From: a virus
Length of the DNA: 35,502 bases
Reading direction: 5' to 3' (one strand)
IMG/VR virus record: IMGVR_UViG_3300045988_120629
Below are positions 2,442 to 30,287 of this stretch, in pieces (position 1 is the first letter of the stretch; each line of letters starts with the position of its first letter). Position numbers and translations under genes: made by a program. The notes beneath the pieces were generated by a model. It did not search any database, was not told where the DNA came from, and worked only from the letters and a program-made list of their open reading frames with translations.

Positions 2442-3983
2442 ATGGAACTGTTACAATTAGTTGAAAAATTCAAGAGTGTTTTCAGCATAGAAAAAATTGA
2501 AGATGTTGTTGATGAATTAAAATCAACATTGTTAAATGCGGAAAAGTGTCGAAAGCTATGCGAAGATTGGATTTTAATATGTCCCGATTTAACAATAGAT
2601 TATATGCAAATGATATTTCAATATTATTTTGCCGACCGCAAGGAAAAAATGCAAGACTACACACCGAAAAGTCTTGCGGTAGCAGTTGCAGAGTTATCAA
2701 AAACCAAAGATGAAAAAATTTGTTTAGATTTGTGTGCGGGAAGTGGAGCATTGACAATCCAAAAATGGAACGAGAATAACGATTTAAAATTTATATGCAA
2801 AGAATATGATAGTCGTGTTATTCCGTTTTTGTTGTTTAATTTGGCAATTAGAAATATTGATGCGGAAGTTATCCATTGTGATGTATTGTCAGATGAAAAT
2901 TTCAAAACATACAGGACGCAAAAGGGTGATAGATTTGCAACTGTTAAAGAGATAACTAAGAGCGAATTTAAAGCTGATTGTTGTATATCAAATCCACCGT
3001 ACAATATGAAATGGGAACAGCCGGTATTTGCACAATTACAGAATAGATTTTCACAGTGCGAAGTACCGCCGGAAAGTAATGCGAATTATGCGTTTGTATT
3101 GACTGCGTTAGATGAGATTACGGGCAAAGCAAGTTTTATATTGCCGAATGGTGTTTTAAGTACAGACAACCAAAAGGAAAAGCAAATAAGACAGTATTTA
3201 GTTGAAATGAATTTCATAGAAAGTATAATTGTATGTCCGGATAAAATGTTTGAAGTTACGTCAATACCAACGTGTATTATAACATTTAACAAAAATAAAA
3301 AACATTCAACAGTAGAAATGATTGACCTGCGGCAGAGGTATGAAACAGAACAACGAATGCAAAACGGGCAGTTTGGCGGTAAAAGTCACACTAACAGGAC
3401 ATACGCAAAAGAAGTCAAGGTTATATCTGAAAGTCAGATACAAGATGTATTGATACAGATTGAACAGTACGGAAACATAGCGGGTTACTGCAAGGCAGTA
3501 AGCATTGAAGAAATAAAAAATAATAATTATGTATTGGTGCCAAGCCGATACATAGAGTTTGAGAATATAGAAAATGCACATAGACCGTATAATGAAATAG
3601 TTGCGGATATTAACAGAATTATAACTGAAAAAAATAATTGTAAACTAACAATAAACGAAACAATCGCCAAGTCTTTAGGATTTGACATTGAGCTGTTTAA
3701 GCAGGACAACAGTACAAATAATGATTTTTCAAAATTGACAGAAAAAATATGTGGTGAAAAGATTGTTAAAAATGATTATTTTAAAACAACCAAAAATAAA
3801 AACGAAATAACATTTTCAAACAACAGCAAAGAAAACATTTCAAGTATTCTTATGATGATATTTAACACGTGGAAACAACACATATATTATCTAAATCTTG
3901 AAGAAAACAGATATTTAGCAGAGTTACGGGACGCACTGTTGCCGGAGCTGATGAGTGGCAAGATAGATATAAGTGATATATGA
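2442..3983 (+). CDS. Orphan N6-adenine DNA methyltransferase, HsdM-like, with a fused HsdS-like specificity/C-terminal helix region
   Basis: Motifs DYTPKSL, LDLCAGSGALT (motif I) and CCISNPPYNMKW (motif IV, NPPY). The C-terminus LRDALLPELMSGKIDISD resembles the conserved HsdS C-terminal helix. No nuclease partner gene is nearby. Confidence 0.85.
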   Translation: MELLQLVEKFKSVFSIEKIEDVVDELKSTLLNAEKCRKLCEDWILICPDLTIDYMQMIFQYYFADRKEKMQDYTPKSLAVAVAELSKTKDEKICLDLCAGSGALTIQKWNENNDLKFICKEYDSRVIPFLLFNLAIRNIDAEVIHCDVLSDENFKTYRTQKGDRFATVKEITKSEFKADCCISNPPYNMKWEQPVFAQLQNRFSQCEVPPESNANYAFVLTALDEITGKASFILPNGVLSTDNQKEKQIRQYLVEMNFIESIIVCPDKMFEVTSIPTCIITFNKNKKHSTVEMIDLRQRYETEQRMQNGQFGGKSHTNRTYAKEVKVISESQIQDVLIQIEQYGNIAGYCKAVSIEEIKNNNYVLVPSRYIEFENIENAHRPYNEIVADINRIITEKNNCKLTINETIAKSLGFDIELFKQDNSTNNDFSKLTEKICGEKIVKNDYFKTTKNKNEITFSNNSKENISSILMMIFNTWKQHIYYLNLEENRYLAELRDALLPELMSGKIDISDI

Positions 3984-4994: not shown

Positions 4995-6672
4995 AGAACA
5001 CAAAGCGTATAGATATGCGCAAGACGTTTGCGACGGAAAAATCAACGCGCCGAAATACGTCAAACTGCAATGCAAAGAATTTTTGCAAATTGCAGATGAG
5101 CAAGACAACGAGTTTTGCATATCAAAGAAAAAAGTTCGACTGATAGACAAACTATTAAAATTAATGATTATGCCGTCGGGAATGGCAAAAAATCAAACTG
5201 TATACGAAAGTCTTGCGGGTTTTCAGTTTTTTCTGATTATCTCGGTATTGTGTACGGTATACAGGGGAAATAAAAATAAACGAAAATATGAAACAGCATT
5301 ATTGGAAATATGCCGAAAGAACGGTAAGACAATTATTATCGGCGTCATTTTCATACTGCTGTTTTTTTGTGAACCGAAATTTTCAAAGTTCTATTCGGTC
5401 GCACCGGACGGAACATTGTCAAGAGAAGTGAAAACGGCAATCCGAGAGATTATATTGTCAAGTCCTGCATTAATGGATAGGTTCAAAATTCGTAGGGATG
5501 ATATTAAATGTCTGCTGAATGAGAATGTATATATCCCGTTGAACTATTCCAACTCAAGACTTGACGGACGTCTGCCAAACGCATTTTTGGCGGACGAAGT
5601 GGGAGCATTACCGAACCCGTATGCGATTGAGGCAATGCGTTCAGGACAGTTGACAATACTGAATAAATTAGGCTGTATCATTAGCACTAAATACCCGACG
5701 TTCGATAATCCGTTCGAGGACGAAGTACAGTATGCGAAAAACGTTTTGGACGGAGTAATCAATGACAACAAAGTTTTTGCGTTGCTGTATGAACCGGACA
5801 ACACCAAAGAAGATGAATGGATGAGGGACGACGGAATATTGGAGCAGTCCAATCCGTTAGCGTTAGAAATCCCAAGCATAATGAAAGATTTGAAAGACAA
5901 CAGGGAACGTGCTATACAAATGCCGAGCCGCCGTGAAAATTTTGTTACAAAGCACTGCAACATAATTTATCAAGGAATAGGAACTGAAAGCTATATTGAC
6001 GTTGCAGACGTAAAGGCGTGTCGATTAGAGAACGGCGAGATTGATTGGACCGGATTAGACGTTTATATTGGTGTCGATTTGGCGGAAACAACAGATAACT
6101 GTGCCGTTGTAATGGTGGCATATGTTGACGGAGTGGTTTATTGCGAGCCACTGGCATTTATACCCGAGGCACGGACAGACGAAAAAAGTGCGACGGAACG
6201 TGTGGATTACAGGCATTTTATAAAACAAATGCAGTGCGTGGCGTGCGGTGACAGAGTTGTCGATTACGCGGTTATTGAAGAATATGTAATGAAGATTGAA
6301 GAACAGTACGGCGTCAAAATCATTGATATTGGATATGACCGACGCAATGCAATGTCGTCGGCACAAAAATGGGAGCGTGCCGGCTATAACGTGACGGAAG
6401 TAGAGCAACACTCACGAACTTTGCACGCACCGACAAAACTGTTAAAGGAATGTATTTTAAACCACCAATTTTTATACAAGGCAAACGAATTGTACGAAAT
6501 CAATTACCAAAATGCAAAATGTACAGAAGATACGAACAAAAACAAGTACGTCAATAAAAAACGTTCTGCGGGCAAGGTTGATATGGTTGTCGCTACAATC
6601 ATAGCCGTGTACATAATGCAACAACACGAAATTTTCGACACCGGATTAGATTGGGGCATACAAACAGCATAA
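4984..6672 (+). CDS. terL: Terminase large subunit (Terminase_1-like)
   Basis: 562 aa. Walker-A-like CRKNGKT, LADEVGA ATPase core, C-terminal nuclease region with VGVDLAETTDNCAV. Synteny is terS-terL-portal. Confidence 0.9.
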   Translation: MMDREHKAYRYAQDVCDGKINAPKYVKLQCKEFLQIADEQDNEFCISKKKVRLIDKLLKLMIMPSGMAKNQTVYESLAGFQFFLIISVLCTVYRGNKNKRKYETALLEICRKNGKTIIIGVIFILLFFCEPKFSKFYSVAPDGTLSREVKTAIREIILSSPALMDRFKIRRDDIKCLLNENVYIPLNYSNSRLDGRLPNAFLADEVGALPNPYAIEAMRSGQLTILNKLGCIISTKYPTFDNPFEDEVQYAKNVLDGVINDNKVFALLYEPDNTKEDEWMRDDGILEQSNPLALEIPSIMKDLKDNRERAIQMPSRRENFVTKHCNIIYQGIGTESYIDVADVKACRLENGEIDWTGLDVYIGVDLAETTDNCAVVMVAYVDGVVYCEPLAFIPEARTDEKSATERVDYRHFIKQMQCVACGDRVVDYAVIEEYVMKIEEQYGVKIIDIGYDRRNAMSSAQKWERAGYNVTEVEQHSRTLHAPTKLLKECILNHQFLYKANELYEINYQNAKCTEDTNKNKYVNKKRSAGKVDMVVATIIAVYIMQQHEIFDTGLDWGIQTA

Positions 6673-20328: not shown

Positions 20329-20352
20329 AGAATAGGGACATAGCCCTATTCT
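20329..20352 (-). terminator. Hairpin terminator between the convergent Tal gene and the minus-strand moron gene
   Basis: AGAATAGGG (20329..20337) pairs with CCCTATTCT (20344..20352). The U-run is present only for the minus-strand transcript (A-run 20321..20329). Confidence 0.65.
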
Positions 20353-20930
20353 GTAACACTATTTATAAACGGTAAGATTTTTGTGGTATATGAATCTAAT
20401 TCTATTAATCTGCGGTCAGTATTGCAACGTTTGATATTATCGACAACTACGTCAAGGGTTTCACTATCTATAATAATATCAGTGCCAAAGTGATAGGAAT
20501 GATTTGAATTATTCGCATTTAATTTATTCAGCATATACTGTATATCTGTTTCATCAATATATGCAACACCGTCAACGTATTCAATTTCTATGCCGTCACT
20601 GGTGTAGTCGTAACCGTCGTCACCTTTAACAATCGAAATTTGTGCGGGTGTAAATGACGGTAGCGGTGTGGGTGTTGGTTCGGCGGCGGTATCTGTATCA
20701 ATCGTAATAGTGTTGTCACTGAAACCGACATTGAAACCACCGACAGCGTCGGCAACGTCACGTAATTTGAAATATGTATTATCGTTGATGTTGTAACCCT
20801 CTATCGCTGTTTCCGTACCGTTTACGGCAACAGGGAACGGGTTAGCCGTTACTGCATATTCTACGGCGAAACCTGTCGCTGTCGCACAGATTATACCGCC
20901 TGTTATAAAACCTAATATAAATTTTTTCAT
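20346..20930 (-). CDS. Secreted or membrane-anchored protein with a copper-amine-oxidase-N-terminal-like (stalk) domain and an unknown C-terminal domain
   Basis: Internal ATG (20930) of track ORF 20346..21134, preceded by AAAGGAGG. Signal/anchor MKKFILGFITGGIICATATGF. VAVNGTETAIEGYNINDNTYFKLRDVADAVGGFNVGFSDNTITID matches the Cu_amine_oxidN1 pattern. A Pro/Thr linker EPTPTPLPSFTP follows. Confidence 0.7.
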   Translation of the reverse strand: MKKFILGFITGGIICATATGFAVEYAVTANPFPVAVNGTETAIEGYNINDNTYFKLRDVADAVGGFNVGFSDNTITIDTDTAAEPTPTPLPSFTPAQISIVKGDDGYDYTSDGIEIEYVDGVAYIDETDIQYMLNKLNANNSNHSYHFGTDIIIDSETLDVVVDNIKRCNTDRRLIELDSYTTKILPFINSVTE

Positions 20931-20954
20931 AGCTTGTAGCCTCCTTTTGTTTTT

Positions 20955-20983
20955 AATATATAATAATTTGTGCATTTTGTCAA
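20955..20983 (-). promoter_or_regulatory. Sigma-A-type promoter for the secreted-protein gene
   Basis: Minus strand: TTGACA (20983..20978), 17 nt, TATATT (20960..20955). Confidence 0.55.
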
Positions 20984-20990
20984 TATTTGT

Positions 20991-21019
20991 TTGACAATAC
21001 AGCATTAATATGGTAATAT
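20991..21019 (+). promoter_or_regulatory. Sigma-A-type promoter (extended -10) upstream of the abi gene
   Basis: TTGACA (20991..20996), 17 nt, TG-n-TAATAT (21011..21019). Confidence 0.6.
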
Positions 21020-21096
21020 AAAAATAAAAAGAAAAAAATTCTAAAAAACTATTGCTTTTTTTAAGCAGATAGAATATAATATAACGCATGAGATAG

Positions 21097-21151
21097 GCCT
21101 CAACACGCCTCTTCGCAATGCGAATGCGTACCATGTTGAGGCTGCTTTTTT
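21097..21151 (+). terminator. Intrinsic-terminator-like structure inside the abi 5' leader
   Basis: GCCTCAACA (21097..21105) pairs with TGTTGAGGC (21134..21142), followed by TGCTTTTTTATTTT. There is a nested palindrome TTCGCAaTGCGAA (21112..21124) and an upstream bulged hairpin at 21049..21072. Confidence 0.55.
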
Positions 21152-21167: not shown

Positions 21168-22025
21168 ATGGAAATAAAAAGACCGACTACAATAGAAGAA
21201 CAAATAAAAATTTTAGGTGGTAGAAAGTTAGTTATTGAAGATGTTGAATTCGCTCAAAATGTACTTTTATCGGTAAATTATTATAATTTTACTGGTTATT
21301 TACATACATATAAAAATGCAGATGACAATTACGAAAACATTTCTTTTAATCAAGCGTATAGAATATATCTATGCGATAGACGTATTAGGTCTACTATATT
21401 ATACGCGATAGAGAGTATTGAACATAATTTAAAGACGAAAATCGCTTATGTAATAGCGATGAATACCTGTGCAACATCTTACTTAAACAAAGATATTTTC
21501 GTGGATGAAGAAGAACACCAAAAACTACTACAAAAATTTGGACAAGCAATAAATAGAAATAGTAAAATACCATTCGTAAAACATCACATAAAGAAATATG
21601 ACAGAAGATTTCCTATTTGGGTAGCTATTGAAATTTCTACCTTAGGAATGGTGTGGAATTGTTATAAAAATTTAAAGACACCTCTAAAAAAGAAGATTGC
21701 ATCAAAATTTAATATAGGTTCCGTTTATTTGGAGAGCTGGATTGAATGTATATCTTATTTACGAAATGTATGCGCACACTATATGAGGTTATATAGATTT
21801 AAGGTACAGAAGACACCTAAAAAGAGTAAAAAACATAGTATGAATAATATATCTCACTGCATATATGACATTATAAATGTAATGCGTTTTTTAATGCCAA
21901 GTAAAGATGAATGGAATAATTACATAATTTCTAATATTGCTCAAATCTTTGAAGAATATAAAGATGTTGTAAGTCCTGAAGATTATGGTTTTCCAAAGAA
22001 CTGGGAAAAAACTTTAACATTATAA
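21168..22025 (+). CDS. Abortive-infection protein, Abi_2 (AbiD/AbiF-like) family, HEPN-type
   Basis: N-terminus RPTTIEEQIKILGGRKLVIEDVEFAQNVLLSVNYYNFTGY and FPIWVAIEISTLGMVWNCY are typical of Abi_2. There is an Rx4H HEPN motif, RNVCAH (R codon at 21762). The gene is visibly more AT-rich than its neighbours. Confidence 0.85.
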   Translation: MEIKRPTTIEEQIKILGGRKLVIEDVEFAQNVLLSVNYYNFTGYLHTYKNADDNYENISFNQAYRIYLCDRRIRSTILYAIESIEHNLKTKIAYVIAMNTCATSYLNKDIFVDEEEHQKLLQKFGQAINRNSKIPFVKHHIKKYDRRFPIWVAIEISTLGMVWNCYKNLKTPLKKKIASKFNIGSVYLESWIECISYLRNVCAHYMRLYRFKVQKTPKKSKKHSMNNISHCIYDIINVMRFLMPSKDEWNNYIISNIAQIFEEYKDVVSPEDYGFPKNWEKTLTL

Positions 22026-25667: not shown

Positions 25668-25862
25668 ATGAAAGAATGGCTAAAATGCGCGGGTATTCGT
25701 GCAATAAAAACAGTAGCACAAACAGCAGTTGCCACTATTGGTACTGCTATTGCTATGGGAGACGTAAATTGGGTATTGGTAGGTAGTGCATCTGCACTTG
25801 CAGGAATACTTTCTCTGCTAACATCTATTGCAGGTCTTCCTGAAATCCAAGAAAAGAATTGA
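25668..25862 (+). CDS. Holin (phiLC3 / Phage_holin_5-like, two TM helices)
   Basis: 64 aa, RAIKTVAQTAVATIGTAIA plus a second TM helix, RBS AGGAGG, immediately upstream of the endolysin. Confidence 0.7.
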   Translation: MKEWLKCAGIRAIKTVAQTAVATIGTAIAMGDVNWVLVGSASALAGILSLLTSIAGLPEIQEKN

Positions 25863-25872
25863 GGGGATACAT

Positions 25873-26718
25873 ATGCGAACAATAAATGATGGATTTCCAA
25901 TCAAACAGTTCAATGGTATTGACATTGATACGTCAATACAGTCATCATCGGCAAACTATTACACATACAGTAGTCGTTTGGTGAAATTTATTGTAATTCA
26001 CTACACCGGAAACAAGAAGGACACCGCAAAAGCAAATGCAACATATTTTCATAATGGTTCACGAGGTGCATCGGCACATTTGTTTACTGATGATGATAGT
26101 TGTTATCAATCAGTCGCATTGAATAATGCCGCATGGGCGGTGGGCGGCACAAAGGTATATAAACATGCCGAATGCCGCAACATAAACAGCATATCCATTG
26201 AAATGTGTTGTAGCGGTAATTCTATTGTGTCAGAAAAAACAATCAACAATACCGCATATTTGTGCGCTGAATTGTGTAAATACATAGGCATTACAGCAGA
26301 TACAGTTGATATATTTGTTTTGCGCCACTATGACGTGTGGGACAAACAGTGTCCGGCACAGTGGGCAACTGAGAACAGTGCCGGTTGGACGACATTCAAA
26401 GAAAAGGTTAAGGCGATTTTAAGAAATGAGGAGGGACTGACGATGGAGCAGTACAATGAATTAAAAAATCTAATAGAGAAACAGGCGGCGGAAATTGCCG
26501 ATTTAAAAAACATCAACAAACAGTTGGTAAACGTAGTTCAAACTACAATGATTTACGACTACAACGATAATAATATGCCGCCTTGGGCAAGACCAGCAGT
26601 CCAATCCGCAATGGATTGCGGAGCGGTACAGGGTGATGAGAACGGCAGATTAGGTTTATCCTATAAGGATTTACGTGCCATTGTACGTGAATATCGTTGC
26701 GGATTGTATAATAAATAG
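25873..26718 (+). CDS. Endolysin, N-acetylmuramoyl-L-alanine amidase (Amidase_2/PGRP) with a C-terminal binding region
   Basis: Internal ATG at 25873 after GAGGGGA. VIHYTGN..., ASAHLF, RHYDVWDKQCP zinc-ligand motif. Confidence 0.85.
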   Translation: MRTINDGFPIKQFNGIDIDTSIQSSSANYYTYSSRLVKFIVIHYTGNKKDTAKANATYFHNGSRGASAHLFTDDDSCYQSVALNNAAWAVGGTKVYKHAECRNINSISIEMCCSGNSIVSEKTINNTAYLCAELCKYIGITADTVDIFVLRHYDVWDKQCPAQWATENSAGWTTFKEKVKAILRNEEGLTMEQYNELKNLIEKQAAEIADLKNINKQLVNVVQTTMIYDYNDNNMPPWARPAVQSAMDCGAVQGDENGRLGLSYKDLRAIVREYRCGLYNK

Positions 26719-26722
26719 GATA

Positions 26723-26753
26723 AAAAATAGGTGGCTACGTGCCACCTATTTTT
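26723..26753. terminator. Bidirectional terminator between the endolysin gene and the minus-strand HTH gene
   Basis: AAAAATAGGTGGC (26723..26735), tacgt, GCCACCTATTTTT (26741..26753). An A-run lies on one side and a T-run on the other. Confidence 0.8.
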
Positions 26754-26935
26754 TATTTGTTTTCGTCTGCAATTCTGTTGATTGCTTCAACCAACAATTT
26801 CTCCGCCCAAACAGGCGGTTTTCTGTCGCCCTTTTCCCAATGGGCGAGAGTGCCTAAAGGGATTTCAAACCGTCTTGATAGTTCAGCTTGCGTCAGACCT
26901 GCCGCAAGTCGAGCTTGTTTTATTTTGCAATCCAT
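26753..26935 (-). CDS. Small XRE-family HTH protein (60 aa; Aca-like or antitoxin-like)
   Basis: IKQARLAAGLTQAELSRRFEIPLGTLAHWEKGDRKPP is a classic HTH_XRE with the WE.G.R.P tail. RBS AAAGGTGA. Confidence 0.8.
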   Translation of the reverse strand: MDCKIKQARLAAGLTQAELSRRFEIPLGTLAHWEKGDRKPPVWAEKLLVEAINRIADENK

Positions 26936-26957
26936 ATATTATCACCTTTTATTCTAT

Positions 26958-26985
26958 ATCCCCTGTCATTTGAATGACAGGGGAT
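26958..26985. promoter_or_regulatory. Perfect 13+13 palindrome between the two genes of the accessory operon
   Basis: ATCCCCTGTCATT tg AATGACAGGGGAT, read directly. Confidence 0.6.
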
Positions 26986-26993
26986 AAGTTTAA

Positions 26994-27245
26994 TTAATCT
27001 TCAATTTCAAAATTGATAAATCTTTCAACTTCGTTTTCTTCATCATCTGTTACAACAATTTCATCATCAACGATTTCAGCGTTTAGGTTGTTGTTTCTGA
27101 TTTGTTCAATTAGAAAATCTTTGTATAGTTCGATTGCTTCTGCTTCGCTTTCAGCAGTTACATAATCGCCTGCGTAATTATCACGACTTGCCTCTACTAC
27201 ATTACCGTTTTTGTACATTTCGTTTGTTACCTTAAATCTCTTCAT
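26994..27245 (-). CDS. Small, strongly acidic protein of unknown function (83 aa)
   Basis: RBS AGGAGG. C-terminus AEIVDDEIVVTDDEENEVERFINFEIED. The core TAESEAEAIELYK weakly recalls DpnD/PcfM-like proteins. Confidence 0.65.
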   Translation of the reverse strand: MKRFKVTNEMYKNGNVVEASRDNYAGDYVTAESEAEAIELYKDFLIEQIRNNNLNAEIVDDEIVVTDDEENEVERFINFEIED

Positions 27246-27311
27246 TTTCTTTTCCTCCTAAAATTTATCCTTTTTGTTTGTTATTTGGGGTTTCCCTCAT
27301 TTCTTGTCTTT

Positions 27312-27340
27312 ATTATACCACCCATTGGATGGTATGTCAA
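27312..27340 (-). promoter_or_regulatory. Consensus sigma-A promoter with a palindromic operator in the spacer
   Basis: Minus strand: TTGACA (27340..27335), 17 nt, TATAAT (27317..27312). The imperfect palindrome ATACCACCCATTGGATGGTAT occupies 27315..27335. Confidence 0.7.
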
Positions 27341-27444
27341 TAGTTTTTTCAAAAAAAAATTAAAAAAAATTTGAAAATAATAAAAAAAGTGCTGATAGTC
27401 AAAATATAGTCAAACGTCCAAAATGCAATATAATTTAGAATAAT

Positions 27445-27479
27445 AAAAAACCGCTCAAACGCAGTGTTTAAGCGGTTTT
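27445..27479 (-). terminator. Rho-independent terminator of the integrase gene
   Basis: Minus strand: AAACCGCT, loop, AGCGGTTT, followed by TTTTT. It overlaps the int stop codon. Confidence 0.75.
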
Positions 27480-28981
27480 CAGTATGGTACACCATCGGTC
27501 GGACTTGTCGAACCTGCAAGCACAGCGTCAACGTAGCTGTCAACGTCAACACTGTCGTTTGGTTTTGACGGTGTAAGATTGAATATGTATAATACTTTGT
27601 CGTTCCATAGGTATTCACGATACAACACCAAATTTATTAATTTCTGCCGTTGTTCTGTCGTCTTGAAATCATCAACATCTATATTTTTTAAAAATCTCTT
27701 AAATGCAGTAGCGTTAAAATTATTTTTTTCCGATTGTTTAACAATCAATTCATATTTTAATTTTTCCTTGACATTTTCCAAATCGTTTAGACGTTGTTTT
27801 GTTGACGGGGTAAAAACACCGTTTTCGATTGCAGTCAGCAGATTGTTTATTTTTCTGTCGGTATCTTCAATTTGTGTTCGTAATGTAATTAGCTCCGCTG
27901 AATTACTTTCGGCAGTTTCTGACGCCTGTATGGTGTCTACAACAGAATTTATAATTTCGTCATTCAGAAAATTGTTTAAAATAAATTTAATAGTATTATT
28001 TTCAATAATATCCCTATGAACGGTTGTTTTAGGGCATTTACCACCTGTTTTATTGACGGAACATTTATAATACGTATATATTCTATTCTGATGATTGCGG
28101 CCACTTTCGCCACGGATTGGGTTACGGCAGTAACCACAAAACAATTTACCTACCAATATATACTGTTCTCTTGCAATCCTGCCCGTACGTCTTTTTGCCT
28201 GTAACTGAATTTGTACACGGTCAAATAATTCATCAGATATTATGCGTTGGTTTTCGTCGTGCAATTCCAAATCGCCGTATGTATATGAACCTGTATATCG
28301 GCGGCGGTTTAAAATTTTCCGTAAATATTGATTTCTAAATAGATTTCCGTTTGACGTTCTGTAACCGTGACTATTCAGCCAATCGCATATGTCTTTGTTT
28401 ATTACCCCGTCTGCATACATTTCAAATATTTTTTTGACAACGGGGGCGGTATGTTCATCTGGTACGCATATATTATCAGATGTTTTTTTGTAACCGTATG
28501 GAATCAATCCGGTAGCTTTGAATTTCAACGCTGTTTCACGCATACCTCTTGAAACTTTCTGCGATAGGTCTTTGCTGAAATATTCGGCGAAACCCTCTAA
28601 AACACTTTCCATTAATGCGCCTTCGGGGGTGTCCTCGATGTGTTCCATTACAGAAACGACTTTGACGCCGTTCGAGTTCAATTTCTGTTTGTTGACAGCA
28701 CTGTCATATCTGTTTCGTGTAAAACGGTCCAATTTCCATACTATTATGACATCAAAACCGCCTGTTGCACTATCAGCAATCATTTGTTGAAATTGCGGGC
28801 GGCGGTCAGTTGTTGCCGACATTGCACGGTCTATATATGTATCAACTATATAGTAGTTATATTTTTCTGCGAACTTTTCACAGTCCGCAAGCTGACCCTC
28901 AATGCTCTGCTCTGTTTGGTTACTACACGAATAACGTGCATATATAACCGCTCTTTGTACTTGATTTTTAATTTTTTTCAT
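27479..28981 (-). CDS. int: Large serine recombinase (phage integrase)
   Basis: ATG at 28981 after AAGAGGTG; the track ORF extends to 29011. AVIYARYSCSNQTEQSIEGQ is the resolvase catalytic motif. Recombinase domain, zinc ribbon CGYC...YYKCS...GKCP, and a C-terminal coiled coil are present. Confidence 0.92.
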   Translation of the reverse strand: MKKIKNQVQRAVIYARYSCSNQTEQSIEGQLADCEKFAEKYNYYIVDTYIDRAMSATTDRRPQFQQMIADSATGGFDVIIVWKLDRFTRNRYDSAVNKQKLNSNGVKVVSVMEHIEDTPEGALMESVLEGFAEYFSKDLSQKVSRGMRETALKFKATGLIPYGYKKTSDNICVPDEHTAPVVKKIFEMYADGVINKDICDWLNSHGYRTSNGNLFRNQYLRKILNRRRYTGSYTYGDLELHDENQRIISDELFDRVQIQLQAKRRTGRIAREQYILVGKLFCGYCRNPIRGESGRNHQNRIYTYYKCSVNKTGGKCPKTTVHRDIIENNTIKFILNNFLNDEIINSVVDTIQASETAESNSAELITLRTQIEDTDRKINNLLTAIENGVFTPSTKQRLNDLENVKEKLKYELIVKQSEKNNFNATAFKRFLKNIDVDDFKTTEQRQKLINLVLYREYLWNDKVLYIFNLTPSKPNDSVDVDSYVDAVLAGSTSPTDGVPY

Positions 28982-29010
28982 AAAAATAACACCTCTTAAC
29001 TTGATTTTCA

Positions 29011-29064
29011 AGTAATGTTATGGTACAATATATATGTTTTTAATTGGTGTTCCATAACACTACT
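29011..29064. other. Candidate attP (imperfect inverted repeat next to int)
   Basis: AGTAATGTTATGGTACA (29011..27) and TGTTCCATAACACTACT (29048..64) form 15/17 complementary arms around a 20-nt AT-rich core. Confidence 0.35.
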
Positions 29065-29066
29065 GA

Positions 29067-29103
29067 CCCCGTGACTGCTCCAAACAGTTGCGGGGCTTTT
29101 TTT
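29067..29103 (+). terminator. Strong plus-strand-facing intrinsic terminator with no plus-strand phage gene upstream
   Basis: CCCCGTGACTG (29067..77) pairs with CAGTTGCGGGG (29085..95), followed by CTTTTTTTTATTTTTT. Confidence 0.6.
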
Positions 29104-29641
29104 ATTTTTTGATTGTTAATTCAGTCTTGCAATGCGGACAGGTAACGTTTAACGTTGGTAATGATTGACCTTTCGCATTCTTATATTTCACAGTAAATTC
29201 CTTACCACAATTTTGGCAAACGTGTTTAAAACTAACGTCTTCAACAGGTTTTGAATTTGAATTAATATATCCGCACGAACATTGAATTGTAGTATTAGAA
29301 TTTTTATCGCCACATTTAGGACAAATCCACACATTATTTGTTTTTTTGGTATTGGCCGCAAGCTGTTCTAAATTAGATGGTTGACTACTGTCTGATGTAT
29401 TTAACTGTTCTGTTAGTCTATCCAAAATACTGATTTGTGTTTCCTGATTGTCTAATATAGAATATACTGCATACAGTATCAGCCATATAACGAAATTAGA
29501 CGCCCAAACTGCAAGTGCAACGGTCCAATTAAATGCGTGTTTGCCTGATGTAGCAAAACCGGCGATAATAGCAGCTATAAAATAAATTACTTCGACTATT
29601 ATCAAATTAATCTTAAAAATGTTACTGTGTTTTTTTCTCAT
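29102..29641 (-). CDS. Membrane protein with two N-terminal TM helices and a C-terminal double zinc ribbon
   Basis: ATG at 29641 has AAGGGA 8 nt upstream; the track ORF extends to 29659. CPKCG..CSCGY and CQNCG..CPHCK motifs. Co-transcribed downstream of the repressor. Confidence 0.6.
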   Translation of the reverse strand: MRKKHSNIFKINLIIVEVIYFIAAIIAGFATSGKHAFNWTVALAVWASNFVIWLILYAVYSILDNQETQISILDRLTEQLNTSDSSQPSNLEQLAANTKKTNNVWICPKCGDKNSNTTIQCSCGYINSNSKPVEDVSFKHVCQNCGKEFTVKYKNAKGQSLPTLNVTCPHCKTELTIKK

Positions 29642-29710
29642 CGTAAAAATCCCTTTCATTTTAAATTATTTTATCGGATAATTTTATAAAAATTTGCCCC
29701 CTTTCATCAA

Positions 29711-30124
29711 TTATCCGACGTCTTCCATACCGGAAGAATTATAATCTTCTTTTTTATATTTGTCTTTAACCATATCTATGGTTTGTAAAATATATTCTTG
29801 CCCTTGTTCTGATAGCATTCGGAACGTATTCAATAAATAATTTTCGTTTTCAGTCAGTATAGGACTATTTAAAATGATATTGTCGGCATCATCTTGACCG
29901 TCAACATTATCTAAATATTTTAAGGCTACATTGCCAAATAACAGATAATCAGCAGTTACATCTAATATCTCTGATAATAATTTTATCTTTTCAACATCAG
30001 GTTCACGTTTTCCGCTTTCATATAGCGAATATGTTGACGGTGCGACCCCAATAGATTCAGCTAATTCTTTTTGAGATAAATTTTTATTAAGTCGACACTG
30101 TTTTAAATTATTGAAAAAACACAT
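29711..30124 (-). CDS. CI-like repressor (XRE HTH N-terminal domain)
   Basis: ATG at 30124 after AAAGGCGGTG. LKQCRLNKNLSQKELAESIGVAPSTYSLYESGKREP. Divergent from the cro-like gene. Confidence 0.8.
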   Translation of the reverse strand: MCFFNNLKQCRLNKNLSQKELAESIGVAPSTYSLYESGKREPDVEKIKLLSEILDVTADYLLFGNVALKYLDNVDGQDDADNIILNSPILTENENYLLNTFRMLSEQGQEYILQTIDMVKDKYKKEDYNSSGMEDVG

Positions 30125-30146
30125 AAATAACACCGCCTTTAAAATC

Positions 30147-30287
30147 TTTGCATTTTGATAAATAAAGTATAACAATAAAAAATTGTTTTGTCAACAATTA
30201 TTTTGCAAAATGCAAAGTTTTTTGCGAAAAGCTATTGACAAATTTGCAAAATGCAATTATAATACAATTAAAGTTTGCGAAATGCAA
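30147..30287. promoter_or_regulatory. Immunity switch: divergent promoters and repeated TTGCA-N3-TGCAA operators
   Basis: TTTGCAAAATGCAA at 30202..30215 and 30243..30256. TTTGCGAAATGCAA at 30274..30287. Partial site at 30147..30160. Rightward promoter TTGACA (30235..40), 17 nt, TATAAT (30258..63). Leftward promoter TTGACA (30194..89), 17 nt, TATACT (30171..66). Confidence 0.75.

Follow-up and report, generated by a model that had tools for sequence, protein, structure and literature searches.

Introduction

In the anti-CRISPR (acr) operon acrIC7-acrIC6-aca10 of Pseudomonas citronellolis, small genes of unknown fold are followed, in last position, by the gene of a minimal helix-turn-helix (HTH) protein, the anti-CRISPR-associated protein Aca10 (PMC9410881). 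The minimal target of the Aca10 dimer is a 19-bp palindrome, ATACGCTCATTGAGCGTAT, that obscures the acr promoter, and the DNA is read by residues Q22, Q37 and R44 (PMC9410881). The current study concerns a two-gene unit of similar build on the minus strand of IMG/VR virus record IMGVR_UViG_3300045988_120629, a stretch of 35,502 nucleotides (nt) that is referred to throughout as the window. Its first gene (gene 1) encodes a very acidic protein of 83 amino acids (aa) and its second (gene 2) a 60-aa HTH protein of the XRE type. As in the Pseudomonas operon, a small gene precedes an HTH of approximately 60–65 aa, and a palindrome of 19–21 bp that obscures the promoter is the target of the HTH dimer, as demonstrated for Aca10 and as predicted for the window. 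The two operons differ in their setting (Pseudomonas as against a Clostridia phage), in that their HTH proteins are only about 30% identical, and in their cargo, that of the window being unrelated and having no known anti-CRISPR activity. We place approximately even confidence in the view that the two-gene unit serves a temperate gut-Clostridia phage as an accessory (moron) operon, autoregulated and built like an acr-aca anti-defence operon.

A second comparison is offered by the acrIIA1 locus of Listeria prophages, which is reportedly an anti-defence operon located beside the endolysin gene at the end of a temperate Firmicute prophage. Its strong promoter is said to be autorepressed via a palindrome while the payload genes vary, and the HTH, which reportedly comes first, is said to be the N-terminal domain of AcrIIA1 itself, whereas in the window a separate HTH comes last. 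The presence of regulator and effector on one polypeptide is comparable to a protein discussed below (P0084), in which a gene 1-family domain is fused to an HTH.

Results

All features named in an initial annotation of this DNA are present on the minus strand and can be read directly from the sequence. The promoter, described there as textbook, consists of a -35 hexamer TTGACA (27340..27335) and a -10 hexamer TATAAT (27317..27312) with a 17-nt spacer, and is one of only two exact occurrences of TTGACA-N17-TATAAT in the 35.5-kb window, where shuffled sequences predict 0.02; the trinucleotide TGG preceding TATAAT (27312..27320) furthermore supplies the TG of an extended -10. A 21-bp palindrome, ATACCATCCAATGGGTGGTAT (27315..27335, minus strand), fills the spacer; this putative operator overlaps the last base of the -35 and the first three bases of the -10. 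Nine of ten positions match between its two arms, which flank a single central base, and with up to three mismatches allowed no second copy occurs in the window (0 expected). Its significance derives from the exact placement in the spacer and from its behaviour in relatives.

Among the loci of a first scan the commonest spacer is a perfect 10+1+10 palindrome, ATACCACCCATTGGGTGGTAT (10 loci), while the 9/10 variant of the window was found three times, the window included. Locus L038 retains the promoter hexamers and the leader around a different perfect palindrome, TACGCCCA-A-TGGGCGTA; its HTH is 86% identical to that of the window and has an altered recognition helix (PLRTLSHWEN vs PLGTLAHWEK). 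In addition, 80 viral loci encoding homologues of the HTH were retrieved and scanned for consensus promoters. About a dozen more diverged operons, ending in an HTH 40–55% identical, share the TTGACA-17-TATAAT design with an inverted repeat at the same position, abutting the -10. Their symmetric spacers differ in sequence and mostly conform to CCAC-N7-GTGG, examples being CCACTCATTGAGTGG (L030), CCACCATTATGGTGG (the L066-L077 group), CACGCAATGCGTG (L091), CCACCTAACAAGTGG (L095), ACCACCCATTGAGTGGT (L096) and ACGCCCAATGGGCGT, and in L030 and L095 a second copy of the operator lies just upstream of the -35. Thus the sequence varies but the symmetry does not, at one set position of a promoter that would be constitutive without it, as would be expected of the site of a dimeric repressor. 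The view of the initial annotation that the imperfect palindrome is an operator is borne out by this replacement of one symmetric sequence by another and, as far as sequence comparison can tell, operator-like behaviour of the spacer palindrome, seen throughout a whole clade of related HTH operons, is well supported.

A simple code linking recognition helix to operator was sought and not found, as in L018 an HTH of only 51% identity goes with a retained operator of the window type. Two further candidates, namely the palindrome as the phage attachment site of the serine integrase and gene 1 as an excision factor, were ruled out since an identical cassette, operator included, occurs in phages with a tyrosine integrase.

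Gene 2 (26753..26935, minus strand), the last gene before the terminator and the presumed autorepressor, is preceded by the ribosome-binding site (RBS) GGTGA. Its annotation as a 60-aa XRE HTH agrees with a match to Pfam HTH_3 (E 8.3e-9); below threshold, the protein also matches a PHROG family of unknown function and, at E 0.16, the MqsA-family model PF15731, while its top match among Protein Data Bank (PDB) sequences is the uncharacterised Atu1735. When a six-sequence profile was compared with the PDB, Aca10 (7XI5, 65 aa), the closest relative that has both a name and a solved structure, was matched at E 1.9e-4 and 24 bits, with other XRE proteins scoring similarly. Residues Q16 and R38 of the HTH align with the DNA-contacting Q22 and R44 of Aca10, R38 being invariant in the alignment of HTH homologues, and the WExGDR loop is conserved, while the equivalent of Aca10 Q37 is not conserved. 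The Aca10 site ATACGCTCATTGAGCGTAT and the operator of L038 agree in 15 of 19 positions; with the operator of L030 the agreement is 12 of 19, including a shared 9-bp core, CTCATTGAG. The likeness to an Aca10-type repressor, in the manner of which the HTH would work, is real but modest and does not establish membership of the Aca10 family. Homologues of the HTH terminate many small-gene phage operons. That the HTH protein binds DNA and represses its own operon is, on the strength of these comparisons, likely.

Gene 1 (26994..27245, minus strand), the presumed cargo or effector, is an open reading frame (ORF) whose product has a net charge of -15 and an isoelectric point (pI) of 4.09. The initial annotation had described an acidic 83-aa protein of no confident family, which stands: the C-terminus reads as quoted there, and the protein is unannotated in all libraries scanned. 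A HMMER scan of 1.84 billion representative proteins returned 57 matches at E<=0.001, of which approximately 40 are distinct clusters of 85–105 aa that share the motifs NYVGDY(I/V)EAExxEEAI..A.DYL and YYxFxAxE and are uniformly acidic (net charge -8 to -22, median -15.5; pI approximately 4.05). AlphaFold2, supplied with the family alignment, predicted the order beta-beta-alpha-beta-beta-beta with a mean predicted local distance difference test (pLDDT) score of 88.6 and a predicted template modelling (TM) score of 0.77. Judged by this alignment and model, gene 1 is a real folded protein and the founder of an unannotated family.

Searches of NCBIfam, PADLOC and PDB sequences with gene 1 gave no match, nor did searches of Pfam and PHROG with 30 family members, and a family profile compared with PDB sequences returned only chance-level hits over a helix (a proteasome subunit and the SPbeta 'Sar' repressor, E 0.15–0.16). 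Foldseek comparison of two AlphaFold2 models with the PDB yielded nothing significant (best E 0.46–0.95, TM <=0.3), and the first model likewise found nothing significant in BFVD, where the best matches were uncharacterised actinophage proteins at a TM of approximately 0.5. The structural comparison proposed with the initial annotation has thus been made, and no clear homology to a solved structural or replication protein emerged from the PDB. The HicB Pfam models matched none of the 30 family members, and the HicB N-domain (6g1c) ranked 36th in Foldseek (E 3.8, TM 0.35). Comparison with solved Acr structures, by sequence and by Foldseek, revealed no similarity. Being small, cytoplasmic, very acidic and phage-encoded, the gene 1 protein is reminiscent of the DNA-mimic inhibitors Ocr, ArdA, AcrIIA4, AcrIIA2 and AcrIF2, although its model has no structural match in the PDB to any of these by Foldseek. 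No membrane segment, signal peptide or enzymatic domain is present.

These properties bear on the possibility that the two genes form a toxin-antitoxin pair of type II, or one for abortive infection, in which the toxin gene precedes the other in the manner of mqsRA, higBA or hicAB, in which case the HTH would be an autoregulating antitoxin. The arrangement of a small gene followed by an XRE HTH, together with the palindrome in the promoter, would fit such a pair, and among NCBIfam models the HTH scores best with TIGR03830 (MqsA family, C-terminal HTH), at E 1.2e-6 and 28.3 bits against a cut-off of 61.8, with the antitoxins HipB and HigA among its weak PDB matches. The motif WEKGDRKPP, which had been put forward as a sign of a HigA/MqsA-type antitoxin, does not hold as such, since it is general in this XRE subgroup and, being found in MqsA, Aca10 and Atu1735 alike, is not diagnostic of antitoxins. 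In contrast to MqsA and its like, the HTH has no toxin-binding or zinc-ribbon domain, 60 aa leaving no room for the former, and it pairs with many unrelated upstream genes. The first gene is strongly acidic (pI 4.1), unlike the RelE, HigB, MqsR and HicA toxins; no toxin is matched by its sequence or its fold, and PADLOC gives no hit. Nor is it always paired, as it stands without such an HTH in 10 loci and is fused to one in P0084. The doubt that the initial annotation itself attached to this alternative was accordingly justified, given an acidic gene 1 that re-assorts with HTH variants, and a toxin-antitoxin function is very improbable.

Close relatives of gene 1 number 44 in metagenomes and occupy 23 loci in IMG/VR; none was found in the species-representative genomes of GTDB, and a nucleotide search of GenBank phages with the cassette gave no match. 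Many of the metagenomic copies (alleles P0022-P0042; L171, 2501..2698) carry differing internal in-frame deletions or truncations, and by eye the deletion junctions lie at short repeats such as GCTGAAA. One such allele, P0031, with an 18-aa deletion, was read on three contigs, and the two places shown derive from two samples. The deletion alleles are probably inactive because core secondary-structure elements are removed. Other family members bear C-terminal extensions; that of P0077 (318 aa) is a DUF3848 domain (E 3e-19), on which a literature search returned no papers, while those of P0058, P0064 and P0067 contain no recognisable domain.

In loci L001-L004 and L006 an integrated prophage carries the cassette between its lysis genes and the adjoining host genes (BioY transporter), and in L005 the same phage is found un-integrated with a tyrosine integrase gene directly upstream of the cassette. 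An alignment shows approximately 99% identity from just upstream of the -35 through the terminator and, beyond this, unrelated sequence upstream. The integration junction of this tyrosine-integrase phage falls approximately 100 bp upstream of the promoter, from which it follows that promoter and palindrome are phage DNA and not an attachment site. In L038 a tRNA-like sequence (~2690..2765), recognised by eye some 140 bp ahead of the cassette promoter, could be a target of prophage integration. The cassette is common to phages with tyrosine or serine integrases and with different lysins (Amidase_2, Amidase_3 or a 277-aa lysin), and all gene 1 contexts examined are phage or mobile-element DNA.

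Within the cassette, gene 1 varies more than its surroundings. Three alleles (83, 93 and 94 aa; 42–66% identical) precede almost the same HTH, and when the window is compared with L042 and L047, L042 having the same serine integrase, the promoter and leader are 93–94% identical and the hairpin, HTH and terminator 91–94% identical, with identity falling to 66% (DNA) and 46% (protein) in the gene 1 between them. Two gene 1 alleles are combined in the chimera P0032, and an additional unannotated gene has been inserted between gene 1 and the HTH in L038 (204 aa) and L048 (189 aa). L018 combines a gene 1 of 97.6% identity with an HTH of only 51% identity. Ten IMG/VR loci (L019-L028) have a solitary gene 1 (94% identical) behind a similar promoter, where a terminator comes directly after the gene and no such HTH lies downstream. 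In one of these, L021, the promoter TTGACA-ACCACACTTTTTCGTGG-TATAAT occurs twice, before gene 1 and approximately 600 bp upstream, as a 29-bp promoter-operator, TTGACAACCACACTTTTTCGTGGTATAAT, at 5309..5337 and 5904..5932; an unrelated small XRE gene (ORF 5539..5847) lies between the copies, which suggests that one different repressor may co-regulate two adjacent transcription units. More distant relatives in the gene 1 family are found elsewhere in phage or mobile-element DNA, beside unrelated neighbours and without an HTH, while distant homologues of the HTH end operons with unrelated cargo lacking functional annotation. At least eight unrelated unannotated cargo proteins were found in similar operons; the cargo genes of the related operons, searched against Pfam and PHROG, gave only an HTH domain in one protein and PHROGs of unknown function for a 413-aa protein. 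A conserved regulator and promoter design with exchangeable small cargo is the pattern by which anti-CRISPR and other anti-defence genes are found (PMC13551039).

The gene-neighbourhood comparison that the initial annotation had called for gives a divided answer, in that the pair does recur in other phages but the pairing is not obligate, gene 1 being found alone, with a swapped HTH, or fused. From these sequence comparisons the cassette emerges as a mobile prophage-end module, in which gene 1 behaves as exchangeable cargo.

The re-assortment is also relevant to the notion of a split regulator, according to which the acidic protein would be a partner domain of the HTH (a sensor, co-repressor or anti-repressor) with targets elsewhere, for example in superinfection immunity or the lysis-lysogeny decision. 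In P0084 a gene 1-family domain is fused in frame to a homologous HTH on six contigs (the four places shown represent four samples, two of them labelled pig gut), and in L088 a second, unrelated N-terminal domain is fused to such an HTH. An N-terminal alpha/beta domain followed by an HTH recalls regulators of the HicB and MqsA type, and the 60-aa HTH has no obvious extra domain of its own. AcrIIA1 and AcrIF24 are, however, known fusions of regulator and anti-CRISPR, so that a fusion need not imply a purely regulatory role. Furthermore, the operator is single in the window, where no other target is visible, and the free re-assortment described above (three alleles with almost the same HTH, the mismatched pair of L018, the solitary gene 1 of L019-L028 and the distant members beside unrelated genes) would be unexpected for co-evolving partners. 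We therefore consider a split regulator improbable and retain the cargo-and-repressor reading.

Between the two genes, after the stop codon of gene 1, lies a palindrome that is perfect over 13+2+13 positions (26958..26985) and extends to 14+14 at 26957..26986. The corresponding stem-loop on the minus strand has a stem of 13–14 bp and a predicted energy of approximately -21.6 kcal/mol, without a U-tract. It follows the stop codon of every gene 1 allele, irrespective of whether the HTH, the 204-aa gene or the 189-aa gene comes next, and a true terminator with a U-tract takes its place behind the solitary copies of gene 1. Seven sequence variants of the stem-loop were compared and each is predicted to form all 13 pairs; at one pair both sides vary (U-A in three variants, C-G in three and U-G in one), and another is U-G in four of the seven. 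Since G-U pairs exist only in the sense RNA, and given the one compensatory double change, the 28-bp palindrome is probably an RNA stem-loop rather than a second operator, a view for which one covarying pair provides the basis. While the perfect 13+13 palindrome was thus correctly identified in the initial annotation, its use as a second HTH site is unlikely, as it is kept whatever gene follows, its pairing pattern is RNA-like, and its sequence is unrelated to that of the operator. There is an even chance, in our estimation, that the stem-loop attenuates read-through into gene 2 or stabilises the 3' end of the gene 1 transcript, thereby raising the ratio of cargo to repressor. In L042 (~2455..2484) the loop reads TTGA, as opposed to TCAA in the window (26957..26986), which makes the whole palindrome the exact reverse complement of that of the window, i.e. 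a flip of the hairpin.

The 5' untranslated region of the operon is a 66-nt leader (27246..27311, minus strand), in which the RBS of gene 1, AGGAGG (27254..27259), lies 8 nt upstream of the ATG. A second, smaller stem-loop (27286..27299) is located in this leader approximately 13–25 nt downstream of the -10; it reads GAGG-GAAA-CCTC in the gene 1 lineages (leaders of L001, L038 and L021) and is weakened in the window by an A.C mismatch. The diverged HTH lineage (leaders of L066-L083) carries at this same place a different stem-loop, GAGATG-AACAA-CATCTC, with a similar AAGA(A/T)A motif before the stem. The leader stem-loop could, from its recurrence, be a 5'-end stabiliser or a regulator-binding RNA motif; an Rfam scan of the region gave nothing above threshold. 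An A/T-rich tract directly upstream of the -35 (27341..27400, minus strand) may act as an UP-element-like region, and comparable A/T runs precede the promoter in all lineages.

From its gene content the window is a siphovirus-like temperate phage, in which a terminase-to-tail block is followed by an r1t-type holin gene, the lysin gene, the two-gene unit, the integrase gene and an XRE repressor gene (29711..30175, minus strand). The Amidase_2 lysin gene (25828..26718, plus strand) is convergent with the two-gene unit and shares with gene 2 a bidirectional intrinsic terminator (~26718..26758, both strands) that is conserved in relatives. Upstream of the unit lies the gene of a large serine recombinase, the integrase (27479..29011, minus strand; Resolvase, Recombinase and Zn_ribbon_recom domains), which has a terminator of its own at 27446..27480. 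Positions 26712..27400 of the minus strand thus constitute a transcriptionally insulated two-gene unit with its own promoter and terminator, consistent with the original view of the interval between lysin and integrase as an accessory (moron) slot, and the cassette likewise lies beside lysis genes elsewhere.

The second perfect TTGACA-17-TATAAT of the window (30235..30263, plus strand) is oriented away from the XRE repressor gene and contains a short inverted repeat, TTGCA-AAA-TGCAA, in its spacer; adjoining it and divergent from it is a TTGACA-17-TATACT at 30166..30194 (minus strand). This pair is probably the immunity switch, constructed on the same operator-inside-spacer plan. Between the integrase and repressor genes a 185-aa protein is encoded (29102..29659, minus strand), whose N-terminal region looks hydrophobic by eye and whose weak zinc-ribbon matches lie below the Pfam thresholds; Cys-rich zinc-ribbon-like proteins also come after the gene 1 relatives of L030, L034 and L037. 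Elsewhere, between the tail genes and an 894-aa tail-fibre-like gene, an Abi_2 (abortive-infection-like) gene (21168..22025, plus strand; Pfam E 2.1e-49) has been inserted together with its divergent neighbour, a 262-aa ORF without a family (20346..21134, minus strand), and the two look, on sequence, like a prophage-borne defence moron.

Discussion

Based on the findings of this study, the operon would operate as follows. The near-ideal sigma-A promoter would fire strongly in the absence of repressor, for instance just after entry of the DNA, and the 83-aa acidic protein would be transcribed first, followed by the 60-aa HTH. The stem-loop after gene 1 would keep the gene 1 product above the HTH, through attenuated read-through or through a stabilised, processed 3' end. 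As the HTH accumulates, its dimer would bind the spacer palindrome and exclude RNA polymerase, holding the operon at a low maintenance level in the lysogen. The acidic protein would be the payload, most likely a stoichiometric inhibitor of a host protein, and the most probable target would be a component of host defence. The acr-aca-like architecture proposed in the initial annotation is upheld with regard to the HTH in last position, the palindrome in the promoter and the variable cargo, although no match of gene 1 to an Acr or other anti-defence protein accompanies it. An anti-defence function of gene 1 appears plausible to us, at somewhat less than even confidence.

The acidic protein might instead inhibit a host function other than defence, or a function of a competing phage, as a gene of lysogenic conversion or superinfection exclusion whose expression the HTH limits. 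Such a role would suit a cassette with its own promoter and terminator that is located at the prophage end by the lysis genes and runs in the same direction as the integrase and repressor genes of lysogeny, in a phage that carries, in Abi_2, another gene of benefit to the prophage, and the diversification of alleles fits conflict with competing phages as well. The protein, however, has neither a membrane segment or signal peptide nor an enzymatic domain, and a promoter that bursts and is then repressed is more typical of genes needed at once on entry. Beyond these protein features and the promoter design, the evidence is shared by both readings; we hold lysogenic conversion or exclusion to be rather unlikely and favour the anti-defence operon.

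A number of observations weigh against this favoured reading at one point or another. Regarding the repressor, comparison of the HTH with Aca10 as single sequences gives an E of 0.045, which is not significant and to which other XRE proteins come close, and the operator of the window agrees with the Aca10 site at only 9 of 19 positions, because its half-sites are one base longer. The operator itself has an arm mismatch, and a 9/10 palindrome taken by itself is not beyond chance; moreover, the right arm GTGG overlaps the TG of the extended -10, so that its conservation could partly reflect promoter strength. As for the cargo, gene 1 bears no likeness, in sequence or predicted fold, to any known Acr, anti-restriction protein or DNA mimic, which leaves only architecture and location to argue for an anti-defence role, and truncated and in-frame-deleted alleles of gene 1 circulate, indicating that the gene is dispensable in at least some lysogens. 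Finally, among the GTDB species-representative genomes, the nearest to the flanking host gene are metagenome-assembled genomes of Oscillospiraceae and other uncultured Clostridia, which reach only 70% protein identity.

Conclusions

The architecture of the operon is one already known, being acr-aca-like with an Aca10-like repressor, whereas the libraries searched contain no description of its cargo family, of the RNA stem-loop or of the clade-wide design of promoter and operator in gut-Clostridia phages. It is tentatively suggested that gene 1 represents a new family of anti-defence inhibitors with a novel fold, possibly a nucleic-acid mimic, and that the HTH together with the CCAC-N7-GTGG operator marks a large and wholly unannotated pool of such cargo in gut-Clostridia phages, a proposal that we put forward with some doubt. 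Gut-Clostridia phages are poorly annotated and few anti-defence genes are known from them; the locus described here is a compact case, in which a strong promoter, a predicted operator and a minimal repressor accompany an acidic orphan protein whose fold is confidently predicted. Should the regulator-operator signature hold true, it would allow guilt-by-association mining, as has been done with Aca proteins, and the trio of promoter, operator and repressor could serve as a compact autoregulated expression module for Firmicutes.

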